A DNA stretch of 64,000 nt, taken from assembly GCA_035498015.1 (NCBI GenBank), contig DATKAO010000141.1:5370-69369 (forward strand). Reading direction: 5' to 3'. Source of the DNA: Myxococcota bacterium. GTDB lineage: Bacteria > Myxococcota_A > UBA9160 > SZUA-336. The translations under genes and the position numbers were made by a program. A model generated the notes under the pieces. The model saw only the letters and a program-made list of their open reading frames with translations. It searched no databases and had not been told where the DNA came from. Shown piece by piece: positions 32,201 to 58,177 of the stretch (position 1 is the stretch's first letter; each line of letters begins with the position of its first letter).

Positions 32201-32970
32201 CAGCTCGCGTCCTCGAGCGCGGGGCCGGTCCCGGCGGCCACGAGAAAGCGCTGGAGGCGCGGGTCGGGACTCTCCTTGATCTCCTTCACGGTGCCGGAGA
32301 TCGCCGCGCCATCGACCAGGAAGACCACCTCGTCGGCCATGCGCATGGTGGACCCGATGTGGTGATTGGTGAGGATCATCGTGAGTCCCTTCGTGTGGTT
32401 CACCTCGACGAGCAGCGCTTCGATCAGGCGCACCGCGAGCGGGTCGAGACCCGAGAATGGCTCGTCGATCAAGAGGATCTCGGGCTCGGTGACCATGGCG
32501 CGCGCGAGCGCGGCGCGCTTCTTCATGCCGCCGGACAGCTCTCCGGGCAAGAGCGAGTCGACGCGCTTCAGGCCCACCGCCTCGAACTGGGCGTGCACGC
32601 GCTCGGCGATCTCCTTCTCGCGCAGGCGCGTGCGCTCGCGCAGCGGCAGGGCCACGTTGTCGAACACGGTCATCGAGTCGAGCAGCGCGCCGCCCTGGAA
32701 CATCATGCCCAGGCGCTTGCGCACGCGGCGCATCTGGCGCTCGGGCAGACGCGAGATCTCCTCTTCGCCGATCCAGATGTCGCCGTAGTTGGGCCGCTGC
32801 AGGCCCGCCATGAGTCGCAGGAGCGTGCTCTTGCCGACGCCGCTCGCGCCCAGGATCACCGAGATCTTCGCCTGCGAGAAGCGGCACGACAGGCCGTCGA
32901 ACACGCGGCGGTCGCCGAATGCGAGCCGCACCGACACCACGTCGACCCGCGAATTTCCCCGGTCGGGCAT
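32200..32970 (-). CDS. mlaF: MlaF ABC transporter ATP-binding protein
   Basis: Walker A GASGVGKST, LSGGMKKRAALARA signature, Walker B LLIDEP. Confidence 0.8.
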   Translation of the reverse strand: MPDRGNSRVDVVSVRLAFGDRRVFDGLSCRFSQAKISVILGASGVGKSTLLRLMAGLQRPNYGDIWIGEEEISRLPERQMRRVRKRLGMMFQGGALLDSMTVFDNVALPLRERTRLREKEIAERVHAQFEAVGLKRVDSLLPGELSGGMKKRAALARAMVTEPEILLIDEPFSGLDPLAVRLIEALLVEVNHTKGLTMILTNHHIGSTMRMADEVVFLVDGAAISGTVKEIKESPDPRLQRFLVAAGTGPALEDAS

Positions 32971-46500: not shown

Positions 46501-48183
46501 ATGGCGGAGCTCGATCTCGCGATTCGCGGCGGAACGATCGTCGACGGCACGGGGGCGCCGGCTCGCCGGGGCGACGTGGGGATCCGAGCCGGGCGGATCG
46601 CCGAGCTCGGCACGCTCTCGGGCCGCGCTGCGCGCGAGCTCGACGCCAGCGGCTGCGTGGTCGCGCCCGGCTTCGTCGACATCCACACGCACTACGACGC
46701 CCAGGTCTTCTGGGACCGCATGCTCACGATCTCGCCCTGGCACGGAGTGACTTCCGTGGTGATGGGCAACTGCGGCTTCGGCGTGGCGCCGACCCGGCCC
46801 GCGCACCGCGAGCTGATCATGCGCACGCTCGAGAACGTGGAGGGCATGTCGCTCGAGGCGCTGCGCGCGGGCATCGGGCCCGACTGGCCGTTCGAGACCT
46901 TCCCGCAGTATCTCGACGCGCTCGAGGCGCGCGGCACGGCGATCAACGTGGGGGCGCTCGTGGGTCACACGCCCGTGCGGCTGTACGTGATGGGCGAGGA
47001 GGCGACCGAGCGCGAGGCGACCGAGGACGAGATCGCGCAGATGGAGCGCATCGTGGCCGAAGCCGTGCGCGCCGGCGCGGTGGGCTTCGCGACCAGCAAG
47101 TCGGCCACGCACGTGGGCTACGCGGGCCGGCCGGTGCCGAGCCGCGCGGCCTCGCTCGCGGAGATCGAGAGACTCGCCTCGACGCTCGGCGCGCAGGGCC
47201 GCGGCATCGTGCAGGCCACGATCGGCCGCGGCTTCTTCACCGCCGAGCTCGCGGAGCTGGCGCGCAAGACCGGTCGTCCGGTGTCGTGGACGGCGCTGCT
47301 GGCGGGCGCGCTCGGTCCCGACGGACACCGGAAAGTGTTGGAGGACCACGAGAGGCTCCAGCGCCAGGGCGTGCCGGTCTACCCGCAGGTGGCGTGTCGG
47401 CCGCTCAACTTCGAGTTCCAGTGGAAGGCGCCGTTCCCGTACGAGAGCATGCAGATCTTCCAGCCGGTGTCTCGCGCCGACCACGCGGGCAAGAAGAAGA
47501 TCTACGCCGACCCGGAGTTCCGCGCCGCGTTCCGCGAGCGCGGCAGCAAGGGCGGGATCGCCGGCCGCTGGGAAGACACCGTGGTCTCGAGCTATGCGCC
47601 CGACCCGAGTCTCGAGGAGCGCAACGTGGCGCAGCTGGCGGCCGAGCGCGGCGTGCACCCGGTCGACCTGGTGCTCGACATGGGTCTCGAGACCAACCTC
47701 GAGGCGCGCTTCCGCATCGCCGTCATGAACACCGACGAAGGCGCGGTGCGCGAGCTGCTCGCGCACCCGTCGGTGGTGCTCGGCCTGTCCGACGCGGGCG
47801 CCCACGCGAGTCAGCTGTGCGACGGCTGCTTCTCGACGCACCTGCTCGCGCACTGGGTGCGCGAGCAGGGCGCGCTGTCCATGGAGCAGGGCGTGCGGCT
47901 GCTCAGCTCGCGCTCGGCCGAGGTCTTCGGCATCACCGACCGCGGCCGGCTCGCGCCGGGCCTCGCCGGCGACGTGGCCGTGTTCGACCCCGACACCGTC
48001 GGGTGTAGCCCGCTGCGCCGCGTCTACGATCTGCCCGCGGGTCAGGACCGGCTGGTGGCCGATGCCGAAGGCATGCGCGCGGTGGTCGTGAACGGCGTGC
48101 TGCTGCGCGAGAACGGGCGCGACGCGGTGGATCCGGCCGGAAAGCTGCCGGGGCGCGTGCTGCGCGGCGGCGTCGCCGTCTGA
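46501..48183 (+). CDS. N-acyl-D-amino-acid deacylase (D-aminoacylase)-like amidohydrolase
   Basis: AGGAGG lies 6 nt upstream of ATG. GFVDIHTHYD metal-binding motif and D-aminoacylase-like sequence throughout. Confidence 0.65.
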   Translation: MAELDLAIRGGTIVDGTGAPARRGDVGIRAGRIAELGTLSGRAARELDASGCVVAPGFVDIHTHYDAQVFWDRMLTISPWHGVTSVVMGNCGFGVAPTRPAHRELIMRTLENVEGMSLEALRAGIGPDWPFETFPQYLDALEARGTAINVGALVGHTPVRLYVMGEEATEREATEDEIAQMERIVAEAVRAGAVGFATSKSATHVGYAGRPVPSRAASLAEIERLASTLGAQGRGIVQATIGRGFFTAELAELARKTGRPVSWTALLAGALGPDGHRKVLEDHERLQRQGVPVYPQVACRPLNFEFQWKAPFPYESMQIFQPVSRADHAGKKKIYADPEFRAAFRERGSKGGIAGRWEDTVVSSYAPDPSLEERNVAQLAAERGVHPVDLVLDMGLETNLEARFRIAVMNTDEGAVRELLAHPSVVLGLSDAGAHASQLCDGCFSTHLLAHWVREQGALSMEQGVRLLSSRSAEVFGITDRGRLAPGLAGDVAVFDPDTVGCSPLRRVYDLPAGQDRLVADAEGMRAVVVNGVLLRENGRDAVDPAGKLPGRVLRGGVAV

Positions 48184-49031
48184 CGGCCCTGTCGCTCGTC
48201 GACGGCCGCACGCTCGCGTGGGCGGAGTTCGGCGAGCCCACCGGGCGCCCGCTCCTCTTCTTCCACGGCACGCCGGGCTCACGCCTCGGCGCCAGCGCCC
48301 TCGACGACGTGGCACGGACACGCGGCGTGCGTGTCATTGCGCCGGACCGGCCGGGTTGCGGCAAATCGCAGCCGAAGCCCGGTCGCGCGCTGGTCGACTG
48401 GCCGGACGACGTGCGCGCGCTCGCCGACTCACTCGCCATCGATCGTTTCTCGATCGCGGGCATCTCTGGCGGCGGTCCGTATGCCGCGGTGTGTGCCTGG
48501 GCTCTTCCCGAGCGGGTGAGCGGCGCGGCGATCCTCTCGGGGATCGGACCCACCGATCACCCGGGAGCCACCCGCGACATGCTGTGGACGAATCGACTCT
48601 CGCTCTGGCTCGCGCGGCACGCGCCCCCGCTCGCGCGGGCGCTCCTCGGACTGACGCGCAGCCAGCTGCGCAACCCCGAGCGCGCGCTGACGCGCATGGC
48701 GAGCACGCTTCCCGCGCCCGATCGCGCGATCCTCGCGCAGCCGCTCCACCGCGACCGCCTGATCGCGGAGTTCCGAGAGGCCATCTCGTCCACTACCGAG
48801 GGCGCGATCGCCGACTTGCGGATCTTCGCTTCGCCTTGGGGCTTCGCGCCGGAGGAGATCCGAGTCCCTGTCCACATGTGGCACGGCGAGCTCGATCGCA
48901 ACAGCCCGATCGCGCTCGCGCGCCGGCTGGCGGCGGCGATTCCCGGCTGCCGGACGACGTTCGCTCCGGACGGCGGTCACCTGTTCCCACTGCTGCACCT
49001 GGACGAGGTGCTGAAGTCACTCGGGCTCTAG
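48180..49031 (+). CDS. alpha/beta hydrolase (proline-iminopeptidase-like, HGxPGS), probably initiating at CTG
   Basis: The conserved N-terminus LTALSLVDGRTLAWAEFGEPTGRPLLFFHGTPGSRL lies in frame upstream of the first canonical start (GTG 48309). The only candidate initiator is CTG 48180 in a CTGA overlap with the upstream stop. Nucleophile GISGGG. Confidence 0.5.
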   Translation: MTALSLVDGRTLAWAEFGEPTGRPLLFFHGTPGSRLGASALDDVARTRGVRVIAPDRPGCGKSQPKPGRALVDWPDDVRALADSLAIDRFSIAGISGGGPYAAVCAWALPERVSGAAILSGIGPTDHPGATRDMLWTNRLSLWLARHAPPLARALLGLTRSQLRNPERALTRMASTLPAPDRAILAQPLHRDRLIAEFREAISSTTEGAIADLRIFASPWGFAPEEIRVPVHMWHGELDRNSPIALARRLAAAIPGCRTTFAPDGGHLFPLLHLDEVLKSLGL

Positions 49032-49939
49032 CTCTTCACGAGGTCCCGGCAGAAGGAGCGGATCGCCCCGTTCAGCACGTCGGCGGCCTCCCACTGCAGG
49101 AAGTGACCCGCGTCGCGCACCAGGAACGGGCCGACGTGGTCGGGGAAGACGGCTGCGGCCATGCGGTCGAACTCCGGGTAGATCACGTGGTCCGAAGTGC
49201 CGAACAGGATCAGCGCGTGCGTCGGGTTGGGACCCAGCATCGGCGGCTCGCTGCGCTTCTCGGGCTTGAACACCGACTCGTAGCCGCCGAAGCCGGAGCG
49301 CAGCTTCGCGGCGTCGGCGAAGGGCTCGGTCATGAAGTCGACGGCCTCGCGCGCGAAGTGACCCGGGTGCGCCCAGAAGCGCGAGCCGTAGAAGCTCGCG
49401 ATGTAGCGCCGGCGCTCTTCGGGCGTGCCGAGCTCGCTCGCCAGCGCGTCGGCGTCGGTGCCCTGGCGCAGGAAGTAGTCGGCCGCTTCGGCGGCCGGGC
49501 GCGAGCGCAAGCCCGCCATCTTGTCCTTCAGATAGGGCAGGGGCGAGTTGAAGATCACCAGCCGCTCGACCCGCTCGGGGAAACGCAGCGAGAAGTCCTG
49601 GATCACCGCGCCGCCCAGGTCGCCGCCCACCAGCACCACCCGCCGCACGCCCAGGGCGTCGAGCAGGGCGGCCAGGTCGCGGCTGTGACTCGGCGTGTCG
49701 GCGAAGCCGTCGGGCGCGACGTCGCTCTCGCCGAAGCCCCGCAGGTCGGGCGCGATCACGCGGAAGCCCGCGGCCGCGAGCGGCGCGACGTTGCGCCACC
49801 AGATGCGCTTGGTCTCGGGCCAGCCGTGCACGAGCAGGAGCGGGAAGCCCTGGCCCTCGTCGACGGTCACCTGCCCGAAGCCGCGCGGCGACTCGCGACG
49901 AATCCGGAACCGTGCCGGATCGAGCTCGCCCTCGCTCAA
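49028..49939 (-). CDS. alpha/beta hydrolase (epoxide hydrolase / haloalkane dehalogenase-like)
   Basis: LLLVHGWPE, GGDLGG elbow. TTG start overlaps the bolA stop (TTGA). Its stop shares a CTAG with the convergent hydrolase. Confidence 0.6.
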   Translation of the reverse strand: MSEGELDPARFRIRRESPRGFGQVTVDEGQGFPLLLVHGWPETKRIWWRNVAPLAAAGFRVIAPDLRGFGESDVAPDGFADTPSHSRDLAALLDALGVRRVVLVGGDLGGAVIQDFSLRFPERVERLVIFNSPLPYLKDKMAGLRSRPAAEAADYFLRQGTDADALASELGTPEERRRYIASFYGSRFWAHPGHFAREAVDFMTEPFADAAKLRSGFGGYESVFKPEKRSEPPMLGPNPTHALILFGTSDHVIYPEFDRMAAAVFPDHVGPFLVRDAGHFLQWEAADVLNGAIRSFCRDLVKS

Positions 49940-51851: not shown

Positions 51852-52498
51852 GCGCGCATGCCTCCTGCCTTCGCCACCGGGTGGAGGCTGGCCTCGGCGC
51901 TCGGCCGCTTGCCGATGCGCTCGAACAGCGCGTTCACGTTCTTGAAGGCCGGATTGCGGGCCTGACCCACGCCCGCACCGAAGTCGAGCGCGCAGTACAA
52001 GCAGATGTCGGCCAGCGTGAAGCGCTTGCCGCATACCCACTCCTTGCCCGCGAGCAGGCCGTCGAGCTTCTGCAGGTAGTACTGCGACATGTTCTTCAGC
52101 CCCTGCGCGGCCTCGGGAATCGTGAACAAGCGGTCCTTGAACATTCCCAGGCCCTCGGCGAAGCGGAAGCCGTTGGCGAGCGGCTCGGTGATGCCGAACT
52201 CGATGCGCCGGATCCACATACGGGTCTCCGCGCGCTCTTCCGGCGTGGCGCCAATCAGCGCCGGCTTCGGGTTCTTCTCCTCGAGGTACTCGCAGATCGT
52301 GACCGTCTCGCCGAGCACGAAGCCGTTGTCGAGCTCGAGCGCGGGCATCTGGCCGGCCGGGTTCTTGTCGGTGTAGGGCGGCCGGCGGTTCGCACCGCCC
52401 ATGATGTCCACCTGCTCCGTCGGGAGCTGCAGGTTCTTCTCCAGCAGGAACATGCGCACCAGACGCGGGTTCGGGCCGAGCGAGTCGTAGAACTTCAA
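51848..52498 (-). CDS. glutathione S-transferase
   Basis: GGAGA lies upstream of TTG 52498, giving (M)KFYDSLGPNPRLVRMFLLEKNL..., a GST N-terminal domain. The upstream part of ORF 51848..52678 is not protein-like. Confidence 0.7.
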   Translation of the reverse strand: MKFYDSLGPNPRLVRMFLLEKNLQLPTEQVDIMGGANRRPPYTDKNPAGQMPALELDNGFVLGETVTICEYLEEKNPKPALIGATPEERAETRMWIRRIEFGITEPLANGFRFAEGLGMFKDRLFTIPEAAQGLKNMSQYYLQKLDGLLAGKEWVCGKRFTLADICLYCALDFGAGVGQARNPAFKNVNALFERIGKRPSAEASLHPVAKAGGMRA

Positions 52499-52562
52499 GG
52501 TCGTCTCCTTTGAATGGGCGCAGCGCGGCCCGCGGCTATGATACGCGCTCGGGGGTGGAATT

Positions 52563-53870
52563 TTGGACCTGGGCGCCGCGCTTCCCGTCTGGACCGTCTT
52601 GCCGTTCGCCGGCCTCTTGCTCGCCATCGCGCTCTTGCCGCTGTTCGCCGGGCACTTCTGGGAGCAGAACCGCAACAAGGCGCTGGTGGCCGCGCTGTTC
52701 TCGCTGCCCGTGGTGCTCGAGCTCGCGAGCTTCGGTCACCCGGGCCTGCACCAGCTGGTCGAGAAGGGGCAGGAGTATCTCTCGTTCATCCTGCTCCTGC
52801 TCGCGCTGTTCGTGATCACCGGCGGCATCGTGGTGCGCGGGTCACTCAGCGGCACACCGCTGGTGAATACCGGGATTTTCGGGCTGGGCGCCGTGCTCGC
52901 GAACGTGATCGGCACGACCGGCGCGTCGGTGCTCTTGATCCGCCCCGTCCTGCGCGCCAACGCGCCGCGCGAGCGCAAGGTGCACATCGTGGTGTTCTTC
53001 ATCTTCATCGTGTCCAACTGCGGCGGGCTGCTCACTCCGCTGGGTGACCCGCCGCTGTTTCTCGGCTTCCTGAAGGGCGTGCCGTTCGAGTGGACGTTCT
53101 CGCTCTGGAAGGAGTGGCTGCTCGTGAACGGCGCGCTGCTCGTGCTGTTCAACGTGTGGGACCAGCGCGTGCTCGACCAGGAGGAGCTGGAGCGCCCCGG
53201 CTCCCAGCTCGAAGAGGTCATGCACCACGCGCCGCTGCGCATCGAGGGCCTGCGCAACGCCGCGTTTCTCGCCGGCGTGGTGGCCTTGATCTTCTACGCC
53301 GGCCGCGCCGAGCTGCCCTACGGCGTGCCCCAGGCCGCCATGGCGCTGCTCGCCGTCACCGCCTATCTCGTGACTCCCGAGAGACTCCGGCGCGACAACG
53401 GCTTTACCTGGGGACCGATCGTCGAGGTGGCGGTGCTGTTCGCAGGCATCTTCGTGACCATGGCGCCGGCGCTGCTGCTCCTGAACACGCATGCCGCGAG
53501 CGTGGGCCTGCGCGAGCCCTGGCAGTTCTACTGGGCTTCGGGCCTGCTCTCGAGCTTCCTCGACAACGCGCCCACCTACCTCACGTTCTCGGCCGCGGCC
53601 GCGGGGCTGCACGGGCTCTCGCTCGAGGGCCGCTATCTCGCGGAGCTGCTCGCGCAGGGTGACTCGGGCGCGAGGCTCGTGGCGGCGATCTCCTGCGGCT
53701 CGGTCATGATGGGCGCGAACTCGTACATCGGGAACGGGCCCAACTTCATGGTGAAGGCGATCGCCGAGGAGGCCGGCGTGCGCATGCCGTCGTTCTTCGG
53801 CTACATGGCATACTCGGTGGGGATCCTGATCCCGCTGTTCGTCGTGATCACGTTCATGTTCATGCGCTGA
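52563..53870 (+). CDS. ArsB/NhaD-superfamily ion transporter (sodium:proton antiporter-like)
   Basis: About 12 TM helices. Repeated GxxxG-rich segments (FGLGAVLANVIGTTGASVLLIRP...). GGGGGTGG lies upstream of TTG 52563. Confidence 0.55.
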   Translation: MDLGAALPVWTVLPFAGLLLAIALLPLFAGHFWEQNRNKALVAALFSLPVVLELASFGHPGLHQLVEKGQEYLSFILLLLALFVITGGIVVRGSLSGTPLVNTGIFGLGAVLANVIGTTGASVLLIRPVLRANAPRERKVHIVVFFIFIVSNCGGLLTPLGDPPLFLGFLKGVPFEWTFSLWKEWLLVNGALLVLFNVWDQRVLDQEELERPGSQLEEVMHHAPLRIEGLRNAAFLAGVVALIFYAGRAELPYGVPQAAMALLAVTAYLVTPERLRRDNGFTWGPIVEVAVLFAGIFVTMAPALLLLNTHAASVGLREPWQFYWASGLLSSFLDNAPTYLTFSAAAAGLHGLSLEGRYLAELLAQGDSGARLVAAISCGSVMMGANSYIGNGPNFMVKAIAEEAGVRMPSFFGYMAYSVGILIPLFVVITFMFMR

Positions 53871-53884
53871 CCGGGAGGCCAAGG

Positions 53885-54802
53885 ATGAAGCGCTTCCTTC
53901 CGCCCAACGAGCTCGCTCGGGACTCGCGCTTCAAGCGCGCGGGCGCGCGCAACCAGCTCGTGCCATCGCTACCCGACGACGTGGACCAGGTGGTGGCGGT
54001 GCTCGAGGCGATCGCGCCGAAGATCCGCCAGCGCGTGGAGGGCACGGCGCTCGAGCAGATGTACGACGAGCTCGGCCCGGGCTTCGCCTTCCTGATGAAC
54101 GCCGTGCAGCCCAAGCCCGGCTCGCCCGACGCCGAGCGCCAGCTGCGGCTGCGCCTGCACGGCATCTACGTGGGCGAGCTGCAGGCGCTCGAGGCCGCGG
54201 GCCGCACGCTCTGGGACTTCCCCGACGCGCCCTGGGAGTTCAAGCTGAACATGGCGCGCCAGTGCTGGGACGAGACGCGCCACGTGCAGGTGTACGAGAA
54301 GCTGCTCGAGCGCGCGGGCGGCGCGGTCGGCGAGTATCCCGAGAACACTTTCCTGTTCGAGGCGTCGTGTCATGACGACCCGCTCCTGCGAGTCACCGGC
54401 GTGAACCGCTGTCTCGAGGGTCTGGCCTGCGACGTGTTCCGCCAGCTGATCGACTACGGGCACAAGACGGGCGACGAGGTGCTCGCGCAGGCCGTCGACT
54501 TCGTCCTGGCCGACGAGCTCACCCACGTGCGCTTCGGCAGTGACTGGCTGCGCGAGTGGACGAAGGGCGATCCCGAGCGCGCGCGGCGCGCGCACGAGTT
54601 CCAGCGCGAGGTCGACCGGCGCTTCACGTTCGGCGGCGCGCGCACGATCGCGCGCGAGGAGCGGCTCGAGGCCGGCTTCAGCGAGGCCGAGCTCGACGAG
54701 CTGTCGGCCACGCAGGGCGGCGGGCCGAGCCGCGAAACGCTGGTGCGGGCGGCCGAGATCGCGCGCGAGCGTCACCTGGCCAGGCGCTCGCCACAGCCCT
54801 GA
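53885..54802 (+). CDS. DUF455-like ferritin-like-superfamily protein
   Basis: GGGAGG lies 7 nt upstream of ATG. Conserved E/H-containing helices (WDETRHVQ...DELTHVRFG). Confidence 0.55.
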   Translation: MKRFLPPNELARDSRFKRAGARNQLVPSLPDDVDQVVAVLEAIAPKIRQRVEGTALEQMYDELGPGFAFLMNAVQPKPGSPDAERQLRLRLHGIYVGELQALEAAGRTLWDFPDAPWEFKLNMARQCWDETRHVQVYEKLLERAGGAVGEYPENTFLFEASCHDDPLLRVTGVNRCLEGLACDVFRQLIDYGHKTGDEVLAQAVDFVLADELTHVRFGSDWLREWTKGDPERARRAHEFQREVDRRFTFGGARTIAREERLEAGFSEAELDELSATQGGGPSRETLVRAAEIARERHLARRSPQP

Positions 54803-56202
54803 GCCGAGCCGCCCGCGTCTGGCTGACCGCGCTCCTCGCGGCGACGGCAGCCTGCGCCGTCCCTGCGCCCGTGCTCGAGACGGCCCAGGACGACGCCCAG
54901 GCCGGCGCCGAGGCGAGCCGGCAGGTCGAAGCCATGATCGGGTTCGTGCAGGACCCGAGGCTGCGCCAGTACCTGCAGTCACTCGGCGAGAAGCTGGTGC
55001 GCTTCGCGCCCGCGCAGCCGTTCGAGTACCGGTTCCAGGTCGTCGACCAGTGGAGCCCGAACGCCTTCGCGCTCCCCGGGGGACAGATCTTCGTGTCGCG
55101 CGGCCTGCTCGCGCTGACCAACTCGGAGGACGAGCTCGCGTGCGTGCTGGGGCACGAGATCACCCACGCGGCCGAGCGCCACGCCGCGAGTCAGCAGGCG
55201 TTCAGCCAGCAGCTGAGTCCCTTCTCGCTGGCGCTGCCGCGCCAGGCGATCGTGGCGAAGTACGCGCGCGATCAGGAGCGCGCGGCCGACACGGGCGGGC
55301 AGCGCATCTGCTCCGCGGCAGGATACGATCCGCGCGCGCTGTCCAGCTTCCTCGAGTCACTCGGCGGGATCGACCGGCTGCAGATGGGCGTCTCACGCAT
55401 TCCGACCTTTCTCGACAGTCACCCGGGCACCCCCGAGCGCATCGCCACCACGGCGGCCTTCGCTTCGACCCTGCCCCCGCCCGGGCCGCGCGATCCGGTG
55501 CGGGCGCGCGAGGCCTATCTGGCCCGCCTGGAAGGGCTCTTGCTCGGGGCCGACCCCAGCGAAGGCGTGATCCTGGGCTCGCGCTTCGTGCATCCCGACC
55601 TGGGCTTCTCGGTCACCTTCCCGGAGGGCTGGCGGGTGGTGAACACGGCCAGCGCGGTGGTCGCGCGCTCGCCGCGCCGCGACGCCCGCTTCGCGCTCGA
55701 GCCGGCCGGCCCGGGCAGCGACCCGCGGGCCGTGGCCGAGCCCTACCTCGCCCAGCGCGTGCAGGAGTGGCGCGCGGTGCTCGATTTCCAGGGCGCGGAG
55801 GCGACGCCCTGCTGCGCGGCGTACGTGGTGCGCGGGTCGGTCGAGTCGACGCAGGGAGTGATTGCGGGCCAGCTGGCGTGGGTCGTGCTCGCCGGCCGCG
55901 TGTATCGCCTGTCCGCCGCTTTCGTGCCCACGGCTTCCGAGAAGTACGCCGAGCGCGCGCGTCAGATGGTGCAGAGCTTCCGGCCACTCACCGACGAGGA
56001 GCGCGCCGGGATCCGAGTCAACCGCCTGCACCTGGCCCGAGCCCGCGCCGGCGAGAGCTTGGCTTCGTTCTCGGCGCGCACGGGCAACGTCTACGACGCG
56101 CAGCCGACGGCGCTCGCCAACGGGCTCGCGCCCGGCACGAGGCTGTCGGCGGGTCAGCTGCTGAAGATCGGCGTGCAGAAGACCTACGAGCCGCAGAAGT
56201 GA
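54799..56202 (+). CDS. M48-family metallopeptidase with signal peptide and C-terminal LysM-like segment, probably initiating at CTG
   Basis: HEITHAAERH zinc motif. An in-frame signal peptide (L/M)SRAARVWLTALLAATAACAVPAPV precedes the first canonical start. CTG 54799 overlaps the DUF455 stop (CTGA). The track's ATG 54556 extension is Arg-rich and overlaps DUF455 by 247 nt. Confidence 0.55.
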   Translation: MSRAARVWLTALLAATAACAVPAPVLETAQDDAQAGAEASRQVEAMIGFVQDPRLRQYLQSLGEKLVRFAPAQPFEYRFQVVDQWSPNAFALPGGQIFVSRGLLALTNSEDELACVLGHEITHAAERHAASQQAFSQQLSPFSLALPRQAIVAKYARDQERAADTGGQRICSAAGYDPRALSSFLESLGGIDRLQMGVSRIPTFLDSHPGTPERIATTAAFASTLPPPGPRDPVRAREAYLARLEGLLLGADPSEGVILGSRFVHPDLGFSVTFPEGWRVVNTASAVVARSPRRDARFALEPAGPGSDPRAVAEPYLAQRVQEWRAVLDFQGAEATPCCAAYVVRGSVESTQGVIAGQLAWVVLAGRVYRLSAAFVPTASEKYAERARQMVQSFRPLTDEERAGIRVNRLHLARARAGESLASFSARTGNVYDAQPTALANGLAPGTRLSAGQLLKIGVQKTYEPQK

Positions 56203-56220
56203 ACGACTGAGCGCGAGTCA

Positions 56221-56246
56221 CGCGGCGATTTCTGCATTTCGCCGCG
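56221..56246 (+). terminator. putative terminator hairpin downstream of the M48 peptidase gene
   Basis: CGCGGCG-ATTTCTGCATTT-CGCCGCG forms a 7-bp GC stem. No T-tract, as usual at this GC content. Confidence 0.3.
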
Positions 56247-56361
56247 GCCCTGGTTCCCTTCTCGGGTGAGGTGATTCACGCAGGTCGGATCGCGGCTGGC
56301 GCGGCCCTTGCACATCGGCGGGTGACTCGACCCACCAACCACTCACCCCAGCGAGGATTCC

Positions 56362-57438
56362 ATGACCCGACTGTCTCGGTGCGCTCTACTCGTCGTTCTG
56401 TGTGCGGGCTTCGGCACCACGGCTCTGGCTGCGACCGTGGTCGTATCCAACGACGGCGTCGATTCCGACACCTGCGGCGCCAAGACGGCGCCTTGCCGAT
56501 CGATCAGCAGAGGCATCGCGCGCGCAAACGCGGGTGATCAGGTGATCGTGGGTCCGGGCCGCTACGGAGAGCTTACGAACGACGGCGACTTCACCGACCC
56601 CGGCGAGGAGCTGAACGGCGGCGGCGGCATGATCGTGATCGACAAGGCCGTGAGCGTGAGGTCGGTCTCCGGCGCCACGCTCACCGTGATCGACGCGCGC
56701 GGCCTGTCCGACGTCGCGGTGGCGATCACCGCCAACGGGGCCGAGTTCGGCGGCGTCAAGAAGGGCTTCACGGTGACTGGCGCAGGAGCCACGGCGATCC
56801 AGAGTGACGGCTCGGGCATCACCGTCGCGGGCAACCTGGCGCTCGGCAACGGCGGCGGCACGGGCTACTCGATCGCGGGCAGCGACGCGACGGTGTTCGG
56901 AAACTTCTCGCTCGCGAACGAGATCGGCTTTTCGGTCTCGGCCAGCGACAGCGTGGTGCGCGGGAACACCGCGTGGCTCAACACGCTGGTGGGCTACTCG
57001 GTGTCGGGCGACGGAAACACGCTCGACCGCAACCTGGCGGTGTCGAACGGCACGAGCGGCTTCAACGTCGCGGTCGCGACCTCGGGCGGCAGCGTGACTG
57101 GCAACGCGGCGATCGCGAACGGCGAGAACGGCATCGCGCTCACCGGGCCCGGCTTCACCATCCGCGACAACTCGGCGATCGGGAACGACCAGAACGGCCT
57201 CGGCTTCTCCGACGCGTCGTCGGACCCGAGCGGCGGCAACCTGTTCGGCAATCTCGGCTGCGGCCTGCGCAACGCGTCGGACGGCGCTTCGAACGCGCGG
57301 CACATCTACTTCGGCTCGAAGGACGGCCCGAGTGACACCGATCCGGCGGACCGCGTGTGCAACATCGGGGCGTCGACGACGGACAGCGACCCGTTCGCGA
57401 CCAGGCCCGCCAAGCTCAAGGTCAAGACCCTTTTCTGA
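56362..57438 (+). CDS. secreted right-handed parallel beta-helix repeat protein
   Basis: Signal MTRLSRCALLVVLCAGFGTTALA. Repeated about 22-aa Gly/Asn-rich units (G.S.A..VGN.......G) typical of beta-helix/pectate-lyase-like folds. AGGA RBS. Confidence 0.6.
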   Translation: MTRLSRCALLVVLCAGFGTTALAATVVVSNDGVDSDTCGAKTAPCRSISRGIARANAGDQVIVGPGRYGELTNDGDFTDPGEELNGGGGMIVIDKAVSVRSVSGATLTVIDARGLSDVAVAITANGAEFGGVKKGFTVTGAGATAIQSDGSGITVAGNLALGNGGGTGYSIAGSDATVFGNFSLANEIGFSVSASDSVVRGNTAWLNTLVGYSVSGDGNTLDRNLAVSNGTSGFNVAVATSGGSVTGNAAIANGENGIALTGPGFTIRDNSAIGNDQNGLGFSDASSDPSGGNLFGNLGCGLRNASDGASNARHIYFGSKDGPSDTDPADRVCNIGASTTDSDPFATRPAKLKVKTLF

Positions 57439-57439
57439 G

Positions 57440-58177
57440 TCACCGGGCCGCGGAGGAACGCGAGTCGCGCGCGAGCTTCACGAACACGTCGCGCGCCTCG
57501 CGGGCCTCGACGTCGCGGCCGAAAGGCACGTAGCACAGCGCGTCCGGCGCGCGCGTGCGCATCAGGAAGCCGGCGGTCTCCACCGCCGTGATGCGCGCGC
57601 CCGCCGGACGCTCGCCCGTGCGCGCCGCGGCGATGTCGCACAGCGCGCTCTCGTGGTCGCCGTTCATGTGCTCGATCACGCGCCCGGCCGCCTCGCGCCA
57701 GCCGCGCCCGAGCGGGTCACACACGAGGCTGTCGGGCGGGAGCCAGCGGATCGCCCCGAACCCGCCGATCGCGCGCAGCTTCAGCGGCGCGAGCTCCCAG
57801 AACGTGAAATCGTGCGCGCCGCCGTACCCGGGCGCGCCGGGCACGCGCGCGGCGTAGCGCGCGTGGAGCTCTTCGAGCTCGTCGCCTTCGACGTCGAGCC
57901 GCCGGGCCCGCGCCAGCACGGTGACTCGCCAGCTGGCCTGCGCATCGGGGCGCGCGTCGCCCTCGGGGTCGCGCACGAACAGCGAGCAGCGCGGGTCGCG
58001 CTCGAGATTGCGCGTGTGCTGCGCGATCGCCGAGATCAGCACGAACGGCGTGCCGTCGGCGCGCAGCGCGAACGGCGCCAGCGAGCCGAAGGGGAAGCCG
58101 GCGACCTCGGGCTCGGCCGCGATCGTGCATAGCGCCGCGTTGCGAGCGCCGAGCAGCCAGGCGCGCGCTTCGCTCAC
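57440..58177 (-). CDS. pyridoxamine 5'-phosphate oxidase-like FMN-binding split-barrel protein with DUF2470-like C-terminus (HugZ-like)
   Basis: N-terminus ARNAALCTIAAEPEVAGFPFGSLAPFAL is typical of PNPOx-like proteins. GTG 58177 overlaps the sulfatase stop (GTGA). Confidence 0.55.
   Translation of the reverse strand: MSEARAWLLGARNAALCTIAAEPEVAGFPFGSLAPFALRADGTPFVLISAIAQHTRNLERDPRCSLFVRDPEGDARPDAQASWRVTVLARARRLDVEGDELEELHARYAARVPGAPGYGGAHDFTFWELAPLKLRAIGGFGAIRWLPPDSLVCDPLGRGWREAAGRVIEHMNGDHESALCDIAAARTGERPAGARITAVETAGFLMRTRAPDALCYVPFGRDVEAREARDVFVKLARDSRSSAAR

Follow-up and report, generated by a model that had tools for sequence, protein, structure and literature searches.

From which codon is a protease translated when no ATG, GTG or TTG can supply the leader that its family carries? 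The question is raised by an M48 metalloprotease gene in a 64,000-nt window (the whole stretch of DNA analysed here; G+C 71%) from an uncultured soil Myxococcota bacterium, an organism known from metagenome assemblies only. The gene follows directly on a gene for a DUF455 protein. A leader precedes the M48 domain in frame, as had been quoted in the original prediction, and its sole valid start is CTG 54799, which overlaps the DUF455 stop codon as CTGA. That this CTG is reached by coupled re-initiation had also been proposed, and every comparative test that we ran supports the proposal. On sequence grounds, termination-reinitiation at CUG 54799, yielding a lipoprotein M48 protease, would be the best explanation, with a probability of about 0.8. 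Four rival explanations are improbable even when taken together, and each conflicts with several results.

Start codons and leader of the M48 gene

The M48 frame lies at -1 relative to DUF455 and is open from 54544. It holds six start-like codons: CTG 54544, GTG 54556, CTG 54799, CTG 54823, GTG 54871 and ATG 54934. Between 54556 and 54871 it contains no ATG, GTG or TTG, and the other non-canonical starts (ATT, ATC, ATA) were set aside since none occurs there in frame. CTG 54799-54801 and TGA 54800-54802 share the bases TG, and the two co-directional genes thus form a -4 pair with an NTGA overlap (CTGA 54799-54802). Translation from 54799 reads LSRAARVWLTALLAATAACAVPAPVLETAQ. In this frame G+C at third codon positions (GC3) is 0.58 before 54799, where the frame overlaps DUF455, 0.88 in the leader (54799-54870) and 0.93 thereafter.

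The leader had been described as a classical signal peptide. A leader is present, but its type is different: from CTG 54799 it is a lipoprotein signal peptide, MSRAARVWLTALLAATAA followed by C, and not a type I peptide. It comprises an n-region with R3 and R6, a 12-residue hydrophobic core and the lipobox T-A-A-C, ending at Cys19 (54853-54855). We applied a lipoprotein rule of the PROSITE PS51257 type, which takes the lipobox [LIVMFWSTAG](2)-[LIVMFYSTAGCQ]-[AGS]-C with six uncharged residues before it, places the Cys at positions 15-35 and asks for K or R within the first seven residues. When the alternative N-termini were compared in this way (starts 54556, 54799, 54823, 54871 and 54934), the rule was passed solely from CTG 54799, with Cys19, R3 and R6. 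From CTG 54823 the Cys falls at position 11 with no charge before it, and from GTG 54871 or ATG 54934 there is no leader at all.

A start at GTG 54556 would give the protease an 81-residue Arg-rich extension and a 247-nt overlap with DUF455; the overlap had been reported correctly, but the codon had been taken for ATG. This GTG is the sole canonical in-frame start upstream of the leader, and every DUF455-linked relative also has a GTG at -243. Its conservation is uninformative, because the triplet is forced by the DUF455 Glu-Trp codons GAG TGG. G+C by codon position in the overlap is 0.95/0.78/0.58, a non-coding pattern that matches an out-of-frame image of DUF455. From 54556 the Cys stands at position 100, which fails the rule. 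No equivalent start exists at three related loci where the M48 gene follows other genes (L002, L004 and L031), the M48 frame of L031 being free of canonical starts over about 1 kb on the upstream side, and the hydrolase frame discussed below lacks any upstream canonical start. We regard this rival as very unlikely.

Conservation of the DUF455-M48 junction

The comparison drew on 160 related loci and then on the contigs of the nearest homologues. It gave 12 distinct DUF455-M48 junction sequences including that of the window, in which the M48 protein is 64-79% and DUF455 88-92% identical, the latter over all 305 aa. NNC-TGA is found at 12/12, that is, at every locus with DUF455 directly upstream. 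Each of the 12 reads from CTG into a charged n-region, a hydrophobic core and a Cys, with leader lengths that vary by whole codons. When 16 related junction reads were submitted to the lipoprotein rule, 14 passed.

The last DUF455 codon is CCC, TCC, GCC or CTC (Pro, Ser, Ala or Leu), with the C invariant throughout. Over the last 40 DUF455 codons of the 12 sequences the third base is invariant in seven; among the 16 of these codons at which the amino acid varies, the junction codon is the only one with an invariant third base. A sequencing or assembly error that removed a canonical start had been named as a possible refutation; it is ruled out, since CTGA is common to 12 independent assemblies.

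One further rival holds that the M48 start has been lost and that the gene is silent or decaying, CTGA being the remnant of an ancestral ATGA or GTGA. Such a loss would fit the poor performance of CUG as an initiator (10.1101/063800) and the nearby canonical starts gained by three of four CTGA variants at another junction (below). Against decay, the open reading frame (about 467 codons) is intact in 12 or more assemblies at 64-79% identity, and HExxH and dozens of other columns are invariant; the intact frame and these columns imply long-term purifying selection. The leader also keeps its frame and features, and the C outlasts saturation of neighbouring synonymous sites. Decay is accordingly given very little weight.

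Two other observations were made at these junctions. The DUF455 codons ATC GCG CGC (Ile-Ala-Arg; 54761-54769, + strand), 13-11 codons before the stop, have invariant third bases in 12/12 sequences, whereas most of the surrounding synonymous sites vary. An ATC directly precedes the junction CTG in the M48 frame (ATC CTG A) at L165 1453-1458, L166 343-348 and L167 193-198. We considered it as an alternative weak start and rejected it, as it is confined to one relative (L165-167).

CTG and canonical starts at other M48 loci

A CTG-only CTGA also precedes M48 orthologues behind three other upstream genes. In L002 the upstream gene ends ...GGTVN* (AAC TGA) and the leader from CTG reads (L)SKRATLALLVALGVAC; in L004 it ends ...RVFPR* (CGC TGA), with the leader (L)RARARSRREASPLAGALLLAGLAC; and in L031/L127 it encodes a solute-binding protein ending ...WVSELP* (CCC TGA), with the leader (L)SARSATLRRALLGSVTAAPLLASMLAC.

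Homologue comparison had been proposed as a check, with orthologues lacking the leader as the refuting outcome. That outcome is rejected: a canonical start stands 10-40 codons ahead of the Cys in 99 of 112 distinct loci with a lipobox, and uncoupled M48 orthologues place ATG, GTG or TTG before the same leader. The remaining 13 loci have an in-frame CTGA there (ten), a farther ATG (two) or a contig end (one). Absence of a canonical start is associated with CTGA (Fisher p = 3.5e-9, or 4e-4 per lineage, with the control count estimated at 5/99, against 6 counted). L111, L036, L013 and L101 were at one point candidates for loci without a canonical start; they actually have GTG or ATG starts with long n-regions.

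The junction between the solute-binding protein gene and M48 (there called a paralogue) samples all four first bases. It is ATGA in three loci (L124, L157, L134), GTGA in two (L059, L063), TTGA in one (L062) and CTGA in four (L031/L127, L048, L119, L135/L138). The upstream gene ends W[LV]xE[LM]P*, and about 60-130 nt separate the junction from the M48 match that follows. If Pro is the last residue of the upstream protein, the base before TGA is the silent third position of its codon. Since this base toggles between A, G, T and C at a shared junction, CTG holds the exact site of ATG, GTG and TTG. In three of the four CTGA variants a canonical start stands 9-12 nt downstream, as if compensating; in L031/L127 there is none before the lipobox.

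These junctions bear on the possibility that a -1 frameshift or stop-bypass produces a DUF455-M48 fusion in which the hydrophobic segment is an internal anchor. The M48 frame is indeed -1 to DUF455 and runs through the junction without a stop, positive charges that precede a hydrophobic helix fit an N-in anchor, and frameshift-fusion at an overlapping stop-start has been discussed for M. tuberculosis PPE2 (PMC11260477). There is, however, no slippery heptamer. The codons before TGA vary (CAG CCC, GAA GCC, GAG TCC, GAG CTC, GTC AAC, CCG CGC), and their sole common feature is C followed by TGA, which is relevant to a CTG start and not to slippage. Four unrelated proteins, one of them a periplasmic solute-binding protein, are encoded upstream of this type of junction, and a lipobox implies an N-terminal signal. 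A fusion is thus scarcely credible.

Identity and annotation of the protease

The M48 protein belongs to PF01435 at 105.2 bits (cut-off 20.3; E = 4.8e-30). The HEITH motif, which had been placed at about 55150, is found at 55153-55167. Residues H119, E120 and H123 and the downstream E160 and D164 are invariant in 48 aligned M48 sequences; one of the latter two presumably supplies the third zinc ligand.

The best NCBIfam matches of the protein are the BepA and LoiP families. BepA carries a TPR domain. The window protein shares with E. coli BepA (NF052400) the M48 HExxH domain and, as predicted, an exported location; it is not a BepA orthologue, as it scores 112.6 bits against an equivalog cut-off of 570, in a match limited to residues 31-145. 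E. coli LoiP (NF052399), a lipoprotein, also has the M48 HExxH domain and an exported location; against it the window protein scores 39.3 bits (cut-off 365). The C-terminal half of the window protein (about residues 230-467; about 55490-56199, + strand) is probably not the BepA TPR domain. Although it has no Pfam match, it shows good conservation, which extends to a Cys-Cys pair (ATPCCAAYVVRG; TxCCK in relatives).

In NCBI an identical protein is named M48 metalloprotease (entry P0001), with 443 aa from GTG 54871. If the database is right, the protein starts there (MLETAQ...) or at ATG 54934, it is a cytoplasmic protease and the leader is an accident of a GC-rich frame. GTG 54871 is the first canonical start past the DUF455 stop, the Val of a conserved VVLDT motif is encoded by GTG in many relatives, and Ala/Leu-rich readings are frequent in GC-rich frames. 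Several results contradict this: (i) every relative shows a leader with the conserved lipobox Cys and a charged n-region, and its length changes by whole codons; (ii) its GC3 of 0.88 is coding-like; (iii) the same leader is contained in orthologues with canonical starts (99/112 above); (iv) the M48 relatives with the best NCBIfam matches are envelope proteins; and (v) the first canonical codon is inconsistently placed in relatives, falling within the lipobox in some (MALAAC, MLAAAC). We consider a cytoplasmic protease unlikely, if somewhat less so than each of the other three rivals.

The 120 best database homologues are mostly 470-500 aa long and have a canonical start followed by the same type of leader (MRVLLAIALLLAAC and MLRRRRSFGLLAVLLAAC are examples). 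Annotation of the closest relatives is truncated, starting at the Val of VVLDT or within the lipobox (MALAAC, VLAAAC, MLAAAC, MAALAAGC). Across the protease clade all annotated starts fall inside or after the leader (MLETAQ, VLDTAE, MALAAC, MLAAAC), and those inside the lipobox make no biological sense.

The features of the window that bear on this argument are collected in Table 1. The transporter is the first gene of a conserved three-gene cluster. The order and orientation of this trio (transporter, DUF455, M48 lipoprotein; 52563-56202, + strand) are kept in L162, L164, L165, L176 and L177, and within it conservation is far higher in DUF455 (88-92% identity) than in the protease (64-79%).

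Table 1. Positions in the window of the genes and sequence elements discussed
Feature	Position	Strand	Basis
CitMHS_2-like membrane transporter gene, 435 aa	52563..53870	+	Open reading frame; PF16980 CitMHS_2 matched in same-position genes of relatives
DUF455 gene, 305 aa	53885..54802	+	Pfam PF04305, 2.8e-28
DUF455 stop codon TGA, part of the CTGA overlap	54800..54802	+	Kept as TGA in 12/12 junctions
Proposed CTG (CUG) start of the M48 lipoprotein	54799..54801	+	Sole start-like codon with a rule-passing leader; invariant C; GC3 onset
Predicted lipoprotein signal peptide, 18 residues, (M)SRAARVWLTALLAATAA	54799..54852	+	Lipoprotein rule; equivalent leaders in orthologues
TGC, lipobox Cys19, predicted lipidated mature N-terminus	54853..54855	+	Lipoprotein rule; Cys also found at this alignment position in the orthologues examined
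M48 metalloprotease gene as proposed, 467 codons + TGA	54799..56202	+	Pfam PF01435
HEITH zinc-binding motif of the M48 domain	55153..55167	+	Sequence reading
Alpha/beta hydrolase gene, 283 codons, second CTG-only gene	48180..49031	+	Overlaps amidohydrolase stop TGA 48181-48183

A second CTG-only junction and the frequency of CTGA

The original prediction counted the M48 junction as the second CTG-only instance in the window, and the other instance holds up as well. CTG 48180 overlaps the stop at the end of an Amidohydro_3 gene; the alpha/beta hydrolase that follows reads (L)TALSLVDGRTLAWAEFGEPTGRPLLFFHG. The hydrolase frame opens at 48009 only and has no canonical start upstream of 48180; the next one, GTG 48309, would delete the LLFFHG (HG) motif. 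GC3 in this frame changes from 0.47 to 0.98 exactly at 48180. The GC3 jump at both CTGs exceeds chance. Hydrolase homologues of 288 aa cover the entire N-terminus, and the closest ones are annotated at 234 aa. The CTGA is kept in four relatives (L168, L169, L170, L171), behind GTC, ATC or CTC, and uncoupled homologues (62-64% identical) have an ATG after a spacer of about 290 nt. In L177 tblastn found no hydrolase, and it also ruled out an antisense open reading frame without a Pfam match as a shadow of one; the gene appears simply to be absent from L176 and L177.

Systematic use of CTG for coupled re-initiation had been suggested on the strength of these two instances. The habit is recurrent, not systematic. 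Tight -4 junctions in the window comprise three ATGA, seven GTGA, two TTGA and two CTG-only cases (about 2/14). The flanking DNA of other Myxococcota (about 0.84 Mb), with about 58 canonical NTGA overlaps, holds no CTG-only pair outside the M48 family; 0.9 Mb of related loci and two 21-kb loci from close relatives yielded no further ones. Given these counts, 'systematic' is too strong a word.

Three more CTGA junctions between real genes in the window, at 32203 (-), 50205 (-) and 53867 (+), were rejected as CTG-only. A canonical start lies 3-18 nt downstream in each (ATG at +3, TTG at +12 and ATG at +18 nt, respectively). Other CTGA matches in the window, with a G+C of 0.77-0.98 at second codon positions, are in non-coding frames.

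TTGA occurs in the window at 49939 (-) and 39641 (+), and the overlap between a BolA gene and a hydrolase gene stays TTGA in L176 at 4660 (-) and L177 at 2680 (-); weak starts seem to be well tolerated at -4 overlaps here. The junction between a sulfatase and a PNPOx gene is GTGA in the window, at 58177 (-), and ATGA in L176, at 12096 (-), and L177, at 13207 (-), which is ordinary start-codon turnover at a fixed overlap.

Proposed mechanism

We propose that the transporter, DUF455 and M48 genes are transcribed as one mRNA and that translation of DUF455 delivers ribosomes to the CTG. A ribosome that ends DUF455 at UGA 54800-54802 would stay bound and re-initiate one base back, at CUG 54799-54801. 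The initiator fMet-tRNA would be used at CUG, with mispairing at the first codon position only, and no Shine-Dalgarno sequence at a workable distance would be required. None is present at a usable distance from CTG 54799; a GGAG found in some relatives is just 2-3 nt away, and it is missing in the window. The product would be the pre-prolipoprotein fMet-SRAARVWLTALLAATAA followed by C, which would be exported by Sec, lipidated at Cys19 and cleaved by signal peptidase II, giving a mature, membrane-anchored periplasmic M48 zinc protease. Since CUG is a weak start, output of the protease from this junction would probably be far below that of DUF455.

A consensus scan of 52000-56600 found no promoter-like sites (sigma-70-type signals only), and its terminator-like matches are weak and lie within genes, none of them at the junction. 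A tRNA scan returned tRNA-Glu only.

Several points weigh against termination-reinitiation at CUG 54799. The 12 DUF455-linked junctions form one clade, so that common descent accounts for part of their agreement. Under the strict lipobox rule two of the 16 junction reads fail (L082 has FEAC, L164 a C at -4). A single C-to-G change, silent in DUF455, would give the much better GTG and was never fixed; its lasting absence may reflect selection for weak expression, or something else. A freely usable CUG predicts more cases than the none found in the 0.84 Mb of flanking DNA. CUG, moreover, initiates poorly in E. coli and shows no enrichment in mycobacteria (PMC4633059).

Relation to known systems and significance

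CTG starts have been verified experimentally for E. coli hda and yfjD (EcoGene 3.0, PMC3531124) and for the rep gene of IncFIB plasmids (PMC11983097). In E. coli CUG ranks directly behind AUG, GUG and UUG as a start, at 1-2% of the AUG level (10.1101/063800). The M48 gene resembles these three in that a conserved N-terminus extends to the 5' side of the first canonical codon, database records routinely place the start too late, at a GTG or TTG (14 codons downstream for FIB rep), and low expression is attributed to the weak codon. With an N-terminus unreachable from ATG, GTG or TTG and a CTG kept in orthologues, it would itself qualify as a genuine CTG-start gene. FIB rep differs in having a free-standing CTG with a good ribosome-binding site, whereas the window gene has no Shine-Dalgarno sequence at functional spacing. 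In the window the CTG is locked into the preceding stop, and the arrangement occurs in several gene pairs and clade-wide in uncultured Myxococcota.

The geometry is that of ATGA, GTGA and TTGA coupling (Huber et al. 2019, PMC6728339; 2023, PMC10666635), namely a co-directional -4 overlap with the start one base before the stop; the difference is the first base, which is C at the window junction. A 2026 overlap survey names ATGA, GTGA and TTGA only, not CTGA (10.64898/2026.09.10.750558), and a review of translational coupling from 2025 (PMC12548453) does not mention CUG. Both CTG starts and -4 coupling are already known, and the conserved CTGA stop-start junction is apparently new, no description of it having been found in the open-access papers searched. 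Overlap surveys depend on annotations, and Prodigal and other widely used gene callers are not known to allow CTG.

A wider proposal, which we offer only tentatively and think rather doubtful, is that in this Myxococcota lineage termination-reinitiation relaxes start-codon proofreading. CUG would then be a regular, selectable -4 start, and CTGA, instead of drifting to GTGA through a base change without effect on the upstream protein, would be kept as a dedicated signal of 'attenuated coupling' that sets a very low downstream-to-upstream protein ratio. If true, and with gene callers passing over CTG, mis-started genes would make up a few percent of the coupled genes of GC-rich uncultured bacteria, at the cost of signal peptides and catalytic motifs.

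For the genes at hand the consequences can be named. Because its entries start inside or after the leader, a predicted exported lipoprotein is filed in databases as cytoplasmic. The hydrolase as filed has 234 aa rather than 283 and lacks the HG motif of the oxyanion hole. Such mis-starts would recur wherever a gene caller disallows CTG. The rules of bacterial re-initiation have been framed for ATGA, GTGA and TGATG. That CTGA outlasts synonymous scrambling and recurs behind four unrelated upstream genes suggests that post-termination ribosomes may also accept CUG, and that a weak start may serve to fix a low protein ratio within the operon.

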